Origin: a virus
Lineage: Duplodnaviria; Heunggongvirae; Uroviricota; Caudoviricetes
Virus record (IMG/VR): IMGVR_UViG_2693429557_000009
Span: 1 to 6,714 of that record
Length of the DNA stretch: 6,714 bases
Reading direction: 5' to 3' (one strand)
Shown here: piece by piece, positions 6,262-6,576 of the stretch
How the letters are laid out: each line of letters begins with the position of its first letter
Position numbering within the stretch: position 1 is the stretch's first letter
Position numbers and translations under genes: made by a program
Notes under the pieces: model-generated
What the model was told of the DNA's origin: nothing
The model's input: only the letters and a program-made list of their open reading frames with translations
Database searches by the model: none

Positions 6262-6576
6262 ATGACTCAAAACTATGAACTGATTGTGAAAGGGATCCGC
6301 AATTTTGAGAATAAAGTTACGGTAACTTTAGCGTTACGGGACAAAAAACGCTTTGACGGTGAAATTTTTGACCTGGACATCTCGCTGGACCGTGTTGAAG
6401 GTGCCGCGCTGGAGTTTTATGAGGCAGCAGCCAGAAGGAGCATCAGACAGGTCTTCTTGGATGTTGCTGCCGGGTTATGTGAAGGGGACGAGCTGTTGCC
6501 AGAAACGCGCCCCTGTTCAGAGGCGCGGTATACCATAAAAATTAACAGTTCTGATAACTCGATTACGGGTTGTTAG
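6262..6576 (+). CDS. DUF1327/YdfR-like protein of unknown function within the lysis cassette
   Basis: 104 aa ORF with SD GGGGAGAG 8 nt upstream of the ATG; placed between holin and the presumptive endolysin, the same slot as ydfR in the E. coli Qin prophage (essQ-ydfR-rrrQ) as recalled; no catalytic motif recognised. Confidence 0.65.
   Translation: MTQNYELIVKGIRNFENKVTVTLALRDKKRFDGEIFDLDISLDRVEGAALEFYEAAARRSIRQVFLDVAAGLCEGDELLPETRPCSEARYTIKINSSDNSITGC

Follow-up and report, generated by a model that had tools for sequence, protein, structure and literature searches.

The open reading frame at positions 6262 to 6576 (+) of the 6,714-nucleotide stretch analyzed here in full, hereafter called the window, is a real and intact copy of ydfR, the DUF1327 gene, an already known and long-annotated prophage gene, and its distribution and genomic settings indicate that it is optional, movable cargo of the late operon and not built-in lysis machinery. 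That ydfR is accessory cargo and not a lysis component we regard as probable; the fuller explanation that best accommodates all of the observations, in which this optional cargo would be made late and would use its conserved core to bind a host factor, perhaps RNase E and/or RNA, we hold with slightly less than even confidence. Of the complete E. coli genomes, numbering 5426, 4352 (about 80%) carry a ydfR homolog, often in several copies and in as many as 10 per genome.

The frame begins with ATG, ends with TAG, and encodes 104 amino acids. The product matches Pfam profile PF07041 (DUF1327) with an E value of 5.1e-39 and a score of 132.8 bits, against a cutoff of 25 bits set by the curated gathering score, with residues 1 to 96 aligned to profile positions 1 to 90 of 93; it also matches phrog_2735 (E = 3.5e-55). 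NCBI gives it the name 'YdfR family protein', and annotated YdfR family proteins are 99 to 100% identical to it. Identical proteins are present in phage Perceval and in many E. coli genomes, and the copy in phage mEp460 is 99% identical. YdfR of the Qin prophage of K-12 (b1555; UniProt P76160) is a member of the same family in the same slot, within essQ-ydfR-rrrQ-rzpQ, but has 103 rather than 104 residues; it is 70% identical to the window protein overall and 82% identical (59 of 72 residues) in the core, and its tail diverges from that of the window protein at about residue 73. The initial annotation, which had proposed DUF1327/YdfR for a 104-residue acidic protein of soluble appearance, was correct on both counts: the pI is 4.85, there are 18 D+E against 14 K+R, the GRAVY value is -0.26, and neither a membrane segment nor a signal peptide was detected, the maximum 19-residue Kyte-Doolittle score being 0.75. 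No holin family of Pfam or PHROG matched the ORF. The arrangement itself is already known from K-12 Qin and from many annotated phages, and in hundreds of complete E. coli genomes it is annotated, at 99.7% DNA identity, in the order 'class II holin family protein', 'YdfR family protein', and 'lysozyme'.

In the window, ydfR is preceded by the gene for a 71-residue class II (phage 21 S-type) holin (6042 to 6257, +; Pfam Phage_holin_2_1, E = 9e-33; holin PHROGs; 'class II holin family protein' by PGAP) and followed by the first ~18 codons of an R21-type lysozyme gene with a signal-anchor-like N-terminal segment, MSAKIKYGLSAAVLALIA (6632 to 6684, +). The first 53 nucleotides of the ORF that opens at 6632 are identical to annotated R21-type lysozyme genes, and this identity extends to 6684. 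The probable signal-anchor-release (SAR) endolysin postulated downstream by the initial annotation is therefore present as an R21-type start, but it is not intact, for the end of an IS21-family element takes over from about 6685. Holin and lysozyme belong to the same families as those of the phage 21-type S-R-Rz cassette (pinholin plus signal-anchor-release endolysin), as found in Stx phage P27, and the Shine-Dalgarno element is the same; in P27, R follows S with no gene in between, whereas the window has ydfR there. The closest phage counterparts, mEp460 gp55 and the Perceval ORF, are of the 104-residue type, 99 to 100% identical, and have in common with the window the 55-nucleotide spacer as well as the holin and lysozyme on either side; in those phages lysozyme and spanin are intact, in contrast to the IS-cut lysozyme of the window. 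The holin gene contains a dual-start motif, MYQM, at 6042 to 6053, with no charged residue between its two starts; in phage 21 S, a lysine presumably lies between the two start codons.

The element end (6685 to 6714, +) was recognized from the last 40 nucleotides of the window, which match thousands of scattered places on E. coli chromosomes and plasmids; at one such place the match adjoins IS21-family istA/istB genes. The junction with the lysozyme gene falls somewhere in 6677 to 6685, and lysozyme is broken after about codon 18. The element at 6677 to 6714 is of the IS21 family and ISSso4-like. An identical junction was found in four IMG/VR loci, and the three that extend past it retain only nucleotides 1 to 53 of lysozyme. 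The one locus examined further, L020, passes from about 290 nucleotides of the IS to an IS3-family element and then to tail-fiber assembly genes, so that the genes for spanin, terminase, and head are gone, as are most of those for the tail, which implies a large IS-mediated deletion. Because its lysozyme gene is cut by the IS element, the window prophage is defective, with holin and ydfR as its intact leftovers.

Such decay raises the thought that ydfR is itself functionless filler, a reading in keeping with the defects of this copy (the IS in lysozyme and, in loci with the same junction, a large downstream deletion) and with the frameshifted allele of E. coli 042. We consider it highly improbable, as the identical protein occurs in the deposited phage Perceval, and one 99% identical in mEp460, no dN/dS ratio reaches 0.5, and nearly all of some 100 loci, by a large margin the majority, keep the ORF intact. 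In detail, dN/dS ratios for ydfR range from 0.21 to 0.47, compared with values of 0.11 and 0.09 for holin and lysozyme, respectively, those of 0.21 to 0.28 for ydfR having been obtained against relatives with saturating synonymous change; the pooled ratio is 0.44 for codons 1 to 76 and 0.27 for the tail (range for the tail, 0.27 to 0.28). Selection on ydfR is purifying, but weaker than that on the flanking holin and lysozyme, and its purifying nature supports a coding ORF. The 042 allele (locus L001, 7363 to 7678), otherwise 99.7% identical, is annotated as a frameshifted pseudogene of 316 nucleotides, compared with 315.

The translational setting is that of an insert placed between S and R. 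A Shine-Dalgarno sequence for ydfR, GGGGAGAG, lies at 6247 to 6254 (+), within the 3' end of the holin gene, whose stop codon (6255 to 6257) is separated from the ydfR ATG by 4 nucleotides. In P27 the lysozyme gene starts 4 nucleotides past the S stop on the same GGGGAGAG, which is exactly the position of ydfR in the window, and in ydfR-less cassettes this element at the end of S serves the lysozyme gene; the initial annotation was also accurate in describing a gene inserted between holin and lysozyme behind a good Shine-Dalgarno sequence. The spacer between S and ydfR is 4 nucleotides in 91 of 108 loci, and that between ydfR and R varies from -4 to 452 nucleotides across 108 loci, with 55 nucleotides in 55 of them. 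The lysozyme leader TCCTGATAAATATCC (6617 to 6631, +) is conserved in 8 different cassette variants and contains no Shine-Dalgarno-like sequence. It is plausible that the insert has a cis effect on lysozyme translation as a side effect: by taking the holin-coupled ribosome-binding site, it would leave lysozyme behind a leader devoid of a Shine-Dalgarno sequence, and lysozyme translation would be lowered or re-timed. That this effect is the main one and the protein minor we think very unlikely. The sharing of one Shine-Dalgarno sequence and 4-nucleotide spacer by the P27 lysozyme and the window ydfR, the conserved leader, and the variable distance from ydfR to R all accord with it, but purifying selection acts on the protein, tail included, the core is kept at 32 to 39% identity in Yersinia, in a context without lysozyme, and invariant residues are not expected of a spacer that acts only in cis.

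No sigma-70-like promoter site was found by a scan of 5800 to 6714, no RNA family by an Rfam search of 5900 to 6714, and a hairpin at the ydfR stop folded no better than shuffled sequence (z = -1.2). A consensus scan returned a strong terminator-like hairpin with a 12-pair stem and a T-run at 5974 to 6002 (+), past the esterase gene and shortly before the start of the holin, within a longer, 97-residue frame that opens at 5964.

The distribution of the family among phages argues for optional status. DUF1327 was found in 101 of 434 deposited phage records with this holin type, being carried by most Stx1a and Stx2c phages and by almost no Stx2a phages; the pinholin/lysozyme cassette must work without ydfR, because about three quarters of such phages lack DUF1327. 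A core component of the lysis cassette would be present wherever that type of cassette is, and ydfR is not, as P27, with R directly after S, also illustrates. These figures bear on the proposal that YdfR is a dedicated lysis modulator, which tunes the pinholin or the signal-anchor-release lysozyme, for instance through a delay in the release of lysozyme or the triggering of the holin, and thereby sets the timing of lysis. Several features speak for such a role: the gene sits between holin and R21-type lysozyme in nearly every Escherichia and Salmonella locus, and does so with two holin families; its translation is linked to that of the holin gene; its stop codon overlaps the lysozyme start in K-12 (ATGA), where the window has a 55-nucleotide remnant; and a genetic screen, as cited in PMC13232886, ties ydfR to envelope integrity. 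Set against them are a sequence with neither membrane segment nor signal peptide, which leaves no place for a classical in-membrane antiholin, the many phages that have the same holin type and do without the gene, the Yersinia members within tail-gene clusters, the absence of a growth defect when the K-12 protein is overproduced, and selection weaker than that on the flanking lysis genes. On balance, a dedicated lysis modulator seems to us distinctly unlikely, although the near-constant position between S and R in Escherichia and Salmonella may leave room for a lysis-linked role. Of the suggestions made in the initial annotation, an antiholin is unlikely for want of a membrane segment, the ideas of a lysis function in general gain no support from a holin/lysozyme pair that so often works without the gene or from family members among Yersinia tail genes, at a great distance from lysis genes, and the alternative of unrelated cargo fits best, on the strength of that optional status and those tail-gene positions.

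In taxonomic terms the family has a very narrow range. When 1.84 billion cluster representatives were scanned exhaustively with HMMER, only 60 matched, and a scan of one genome per species returned only Escherichia and Shigella contigs, besides metagenome bins labeled Veillonella and Bacillota; we suspect that these two labels are mis-binnings, because the locus in the Veillonella bin matched with an identity and E value equal to those of Escherichia loci. Salmonella and Yersinia members were added by protein searches. Two giant proteins of 3128 and 2356 amino acids gave repeated matches in the exhaustive scan and were rejected; Pfam shows them to be Ig/cadherin-like repeat proteins, and the matches are therefore compositional, arising from VTVTV-type strands.

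Within this narrow range the gene is movable. In Escherichia and Salmonella it is nearly always found between a holin and an R21-type lysozyme, the Salmonella gene following another holin family, PF16080. The most divergent members (32 to 44% identical), in Yersinia rochesterensis, Y. enterocolitica, and further assemblies, lie outside lysis cassettes: in Yersinia prophages the DUF1327 gene is located in the gpM-gpL or the gpI-gpJ interval or else precedes unrelated holins, and P0172 was found, unchanged in sequence, at two distinct tail sites. Relatives of the gene usually have a convergent small ORF beside them. At the 3' end of the DUF1327 gene, every Yersinia-clade locus and several E. coli and Salmonella cassette variants have a convergent ORF of 74 to 104 amino acids (Yersinia-type pairs: L008, 5001 to 5506; L009, 449 to 1001; L108, 4001 to 4529; L109 to L111, 4001 to 4548; L112, 529 to 1070), and the gene and its convergent neighbor look like a mobile two-gene cassette. 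The partners comprise a Yersinia-type group of about 100 residues, a 79-residue group (phrog_21218), and further single ORFs. A single family for all of them was considered and rejected, as phmmer joins only the ~100-residue group and, separately, the 79-residue group; a weak link runs from the 74-residue ORF of L008 to the 79-residue group (pairwise E = 8e-5, with shared weak matches to phrog_6806).

The window itself bears the trace of such a partner. Relatives with the tail type of the window protein (L098, L100, and L102) carry the 79-residue partner (partner regions: L098, 4030 to 4398; L100, 1181 to 1420; L102, 4309 to 4548), and partner ORFs were called in L100, L102, and L103. Alignment with L098 and L102 reveals a clean deletion of about 309 nucleotides in the window, by which the partner was lost and its 3' end (6577 to 6616, -) and the lysozyme leader were left; this deletion explains the 55-nucleotide gap between ydfR and lysozyme. 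As the partner is deleted and ydfR is intact, ydfR persists without it; the same holds for K-12.

The lambdoid morons, of which bor and lom are examples, are optional genes between essential late genes, and their presence varies among close relatives; a classical moron brings a promoter and a terminator of its own, and the lysogen expresses it. In comparison with genes of this type, ydfR has no promoter of its own that we could find and reads with the late operon, the convergent partner ORF being closer to the moron picture. A moron that serves in phage-phage or phage-host conflict, through anti-defense or superinfection exclusion, and that acts with or is regulated by the convergent partner would account for the several intergenic sites in late operons, the exchangeable tails and long C-terminal extensions, the recurrent pairing with a convergent small ORF, the high copy number, and the relaxed selection. 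We nevertheless judge it unlikely, given the missing promoter, the dispensability of a partner that is deleted in the window and absent in K-12 while ydfR stays intact, and the outcome of a search with the PADLOC defense HMMs, in which the window protein, the 268-residue form, the 206-residue E. coli-type P0130, and a Yersinia-clade member had no match, in a library that represents defense and not anti-defense systems.

The protein consists of a conserved core and a variable tail. The core domain (codons 1 to 76; 6262 to 6489, +), delimited from alignments and an AlphaFold2 model, contains an EGAxLEFYEA motif in a conserved stretch of about 76 residues (alignment of 29 members) and the invariant residues E6, G47, Y53, E54, A57, and L72, all of which are present in the window protein. 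AlphaFold2 predicts a three-stranded beta meander (residues 5 to 14, 18 to 27, and 34 to 43) packed on a long helix (50 to 73), with pLDDT values of 80 to 93 across the core and low values in the C-terminal tail. Natural Yersinia members of just 72 amino acids amount to the core alone. The variable tail of the window protein, ELLPETRPCSEARYTIKINSSDNSITGC (codons 77 to 104; 6490 to 6573, +), was placed in a catalogue of tails in which the alternatives give forms of 103, 104, 114, 116, 183, and 268 amino acids; since the window type (…YTIKINSSDNSITGC) is kept in relatives that are 56 to 68% identical, it is a real variant and not the product of a frameshift. Some members have long C-terminal extensions, with 176 to 287 amino acids in total (L005, 2863 to 3669; P0131; P0133; P0054), made up of a coiled-coil-like stretch and a further domain, phrog_1085. 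The L005 gene is gp05 of Stx2-converting phage 86, deposited with the note 'homologous to type IIA topoisomerase', which looks spurious.

In the search for relatives of known function, Foldseek returned no match at E ≤ 0.001 from BFVD or the PDB, the PDB likewise yielded no relative by sequence or by profile, and the NCBIfam models gave no match for the 104-residue protein. Small RNA-binding folds of the dsRBD-like, RNase H-like, and UPF0339-like types were among those considered, and no diagnostic match to a solved structure emerged; in the searches run (PDB, BFVD, NCBIfam, and PADLOC), neither structure nor sequence linked YdfR to a protein of known function. A literature search on YdfR found functional data in one study only (PMC13232886, RNA Biol 2026). 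There, residues 1 to 72 of K-12 YdfR were isolated three times in an RNase G two-hybrid screen and gave two-hybrid signals with both Rne and Rng, the stronger with the N-terminal (catalytic) half of RNase E; Strep-YdfR from lysate copurified Rne(1-598) together with DNase-resistant nucleic acid, and a contaminating protein as the source of the RNA retention was not excluded by the authors (PMC13232886). Overproduction of K-12 YdfR was nontoxic, caused no growth defect, and changed few transcripts, and the Qin ydfR gene is essentially silent in standard culture (PMC13232886). The published RNase E-binding fragment of 72 residues coincides with the natural minimal domain of 72 amino acids, and the window protein is identical to it at 59 of 72 positions.

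On this basis we suggest how the cargo might act. The gene occupies the slot right behind the holin and uses the ribosome-binding site that serves lysozyme in ydfR-less cassettes, and because of this placement we propose that in an intact phage YdfR would be a late product, translated alongside the lysis proteins from the Q-dependent late transcript, as judged from position only. The product is a small, acidic, cytoplasmic protein with a core of 72 to 76 residues and an exchangeable tail. Its conserved core would bind a host factor, for which the catalytic N-terminal half of RNase E and/or RNA is the only experimentally supported candidate, and such binding might give the phage a means of adjusting RNA decay at a late stage of infection. 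The RNase E mechanism, considered by itself, is possible but in our estimate doubtful. Copurification with RNase E may have been RNA bridged, and direct RNA binding by the window protein is unlikely because the protein is acidic (pI 4.85). The small number of transcripts changed by overproduction also counts against this mechanism.

Small phage proteins that contact a host RNA-decay enzyme include T4 Srd, phiKZ Dip (gp37), and T7 gp0.7, all of which offer a possible analogy to YdfR. A bolder proposal, which we advance as a long shot, would make DUF1327 a self-contained effector domain of 72 residues, borne with a convergent ORF in a two-gene cassette that may enter any intergenic slot of a late operon, docking on the catalytic half of RNase E and protecting the long late transcript or re-timing its decay. 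If true, most E. coli genomes would harbor, in DUF1327, the equivalent in temperate phages of T4 Srd or phiKZ Dip. Should YdfR modulate RNase E or lysis timing, phage yield and the release of toxin from Shiga-toxin phages could change. The field of hypotheses is narrowed by two observations, namely, that the gene behaves as movable cargo with a convergent partner and that its natural minimal forms equal the 72-residue RNase E-binding fragment.

Taken as a whole, the window represents the region for late regulation and lysis in a lambdoid E. coli prophage. Ahead of the lysis genes it carries genes for RusA (419 to 793), a Q-type antiterminator (PF03589; 790 to 1611), which also has matches to DnaJ-type CXXCXGXG zinc-finger repeats below the Pfam cutoff, and a DNA methyltransferase (2181 to 3239). 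A NanS-p-like SASA esterase/sialate O-acetylesterase gene (DUF1737 + SASA + DUF6645; 4038 to 5891) is of the kind typically found downstream of stx in Shiga-toxin phages; no toxin gene lies between the tRNAs and this esterase gene in the window. Three phage-borne tRNA genes at 3280 to 3529 were called by ARAGORN as Met(CAT), Arg(TCG), and Arg(TCT); PGAP names the first of them tRNA-Ile in homologous prophages, and its CAT anticodon is therefore probably lysidine modified. Between the tRNA cluster, on its upstream side, and the esterase gene downstream, positions 3606 to 3815 give a full-length Rfam match to the STnc100 sRNA family (148.8 bits; E = 4.6e-34).
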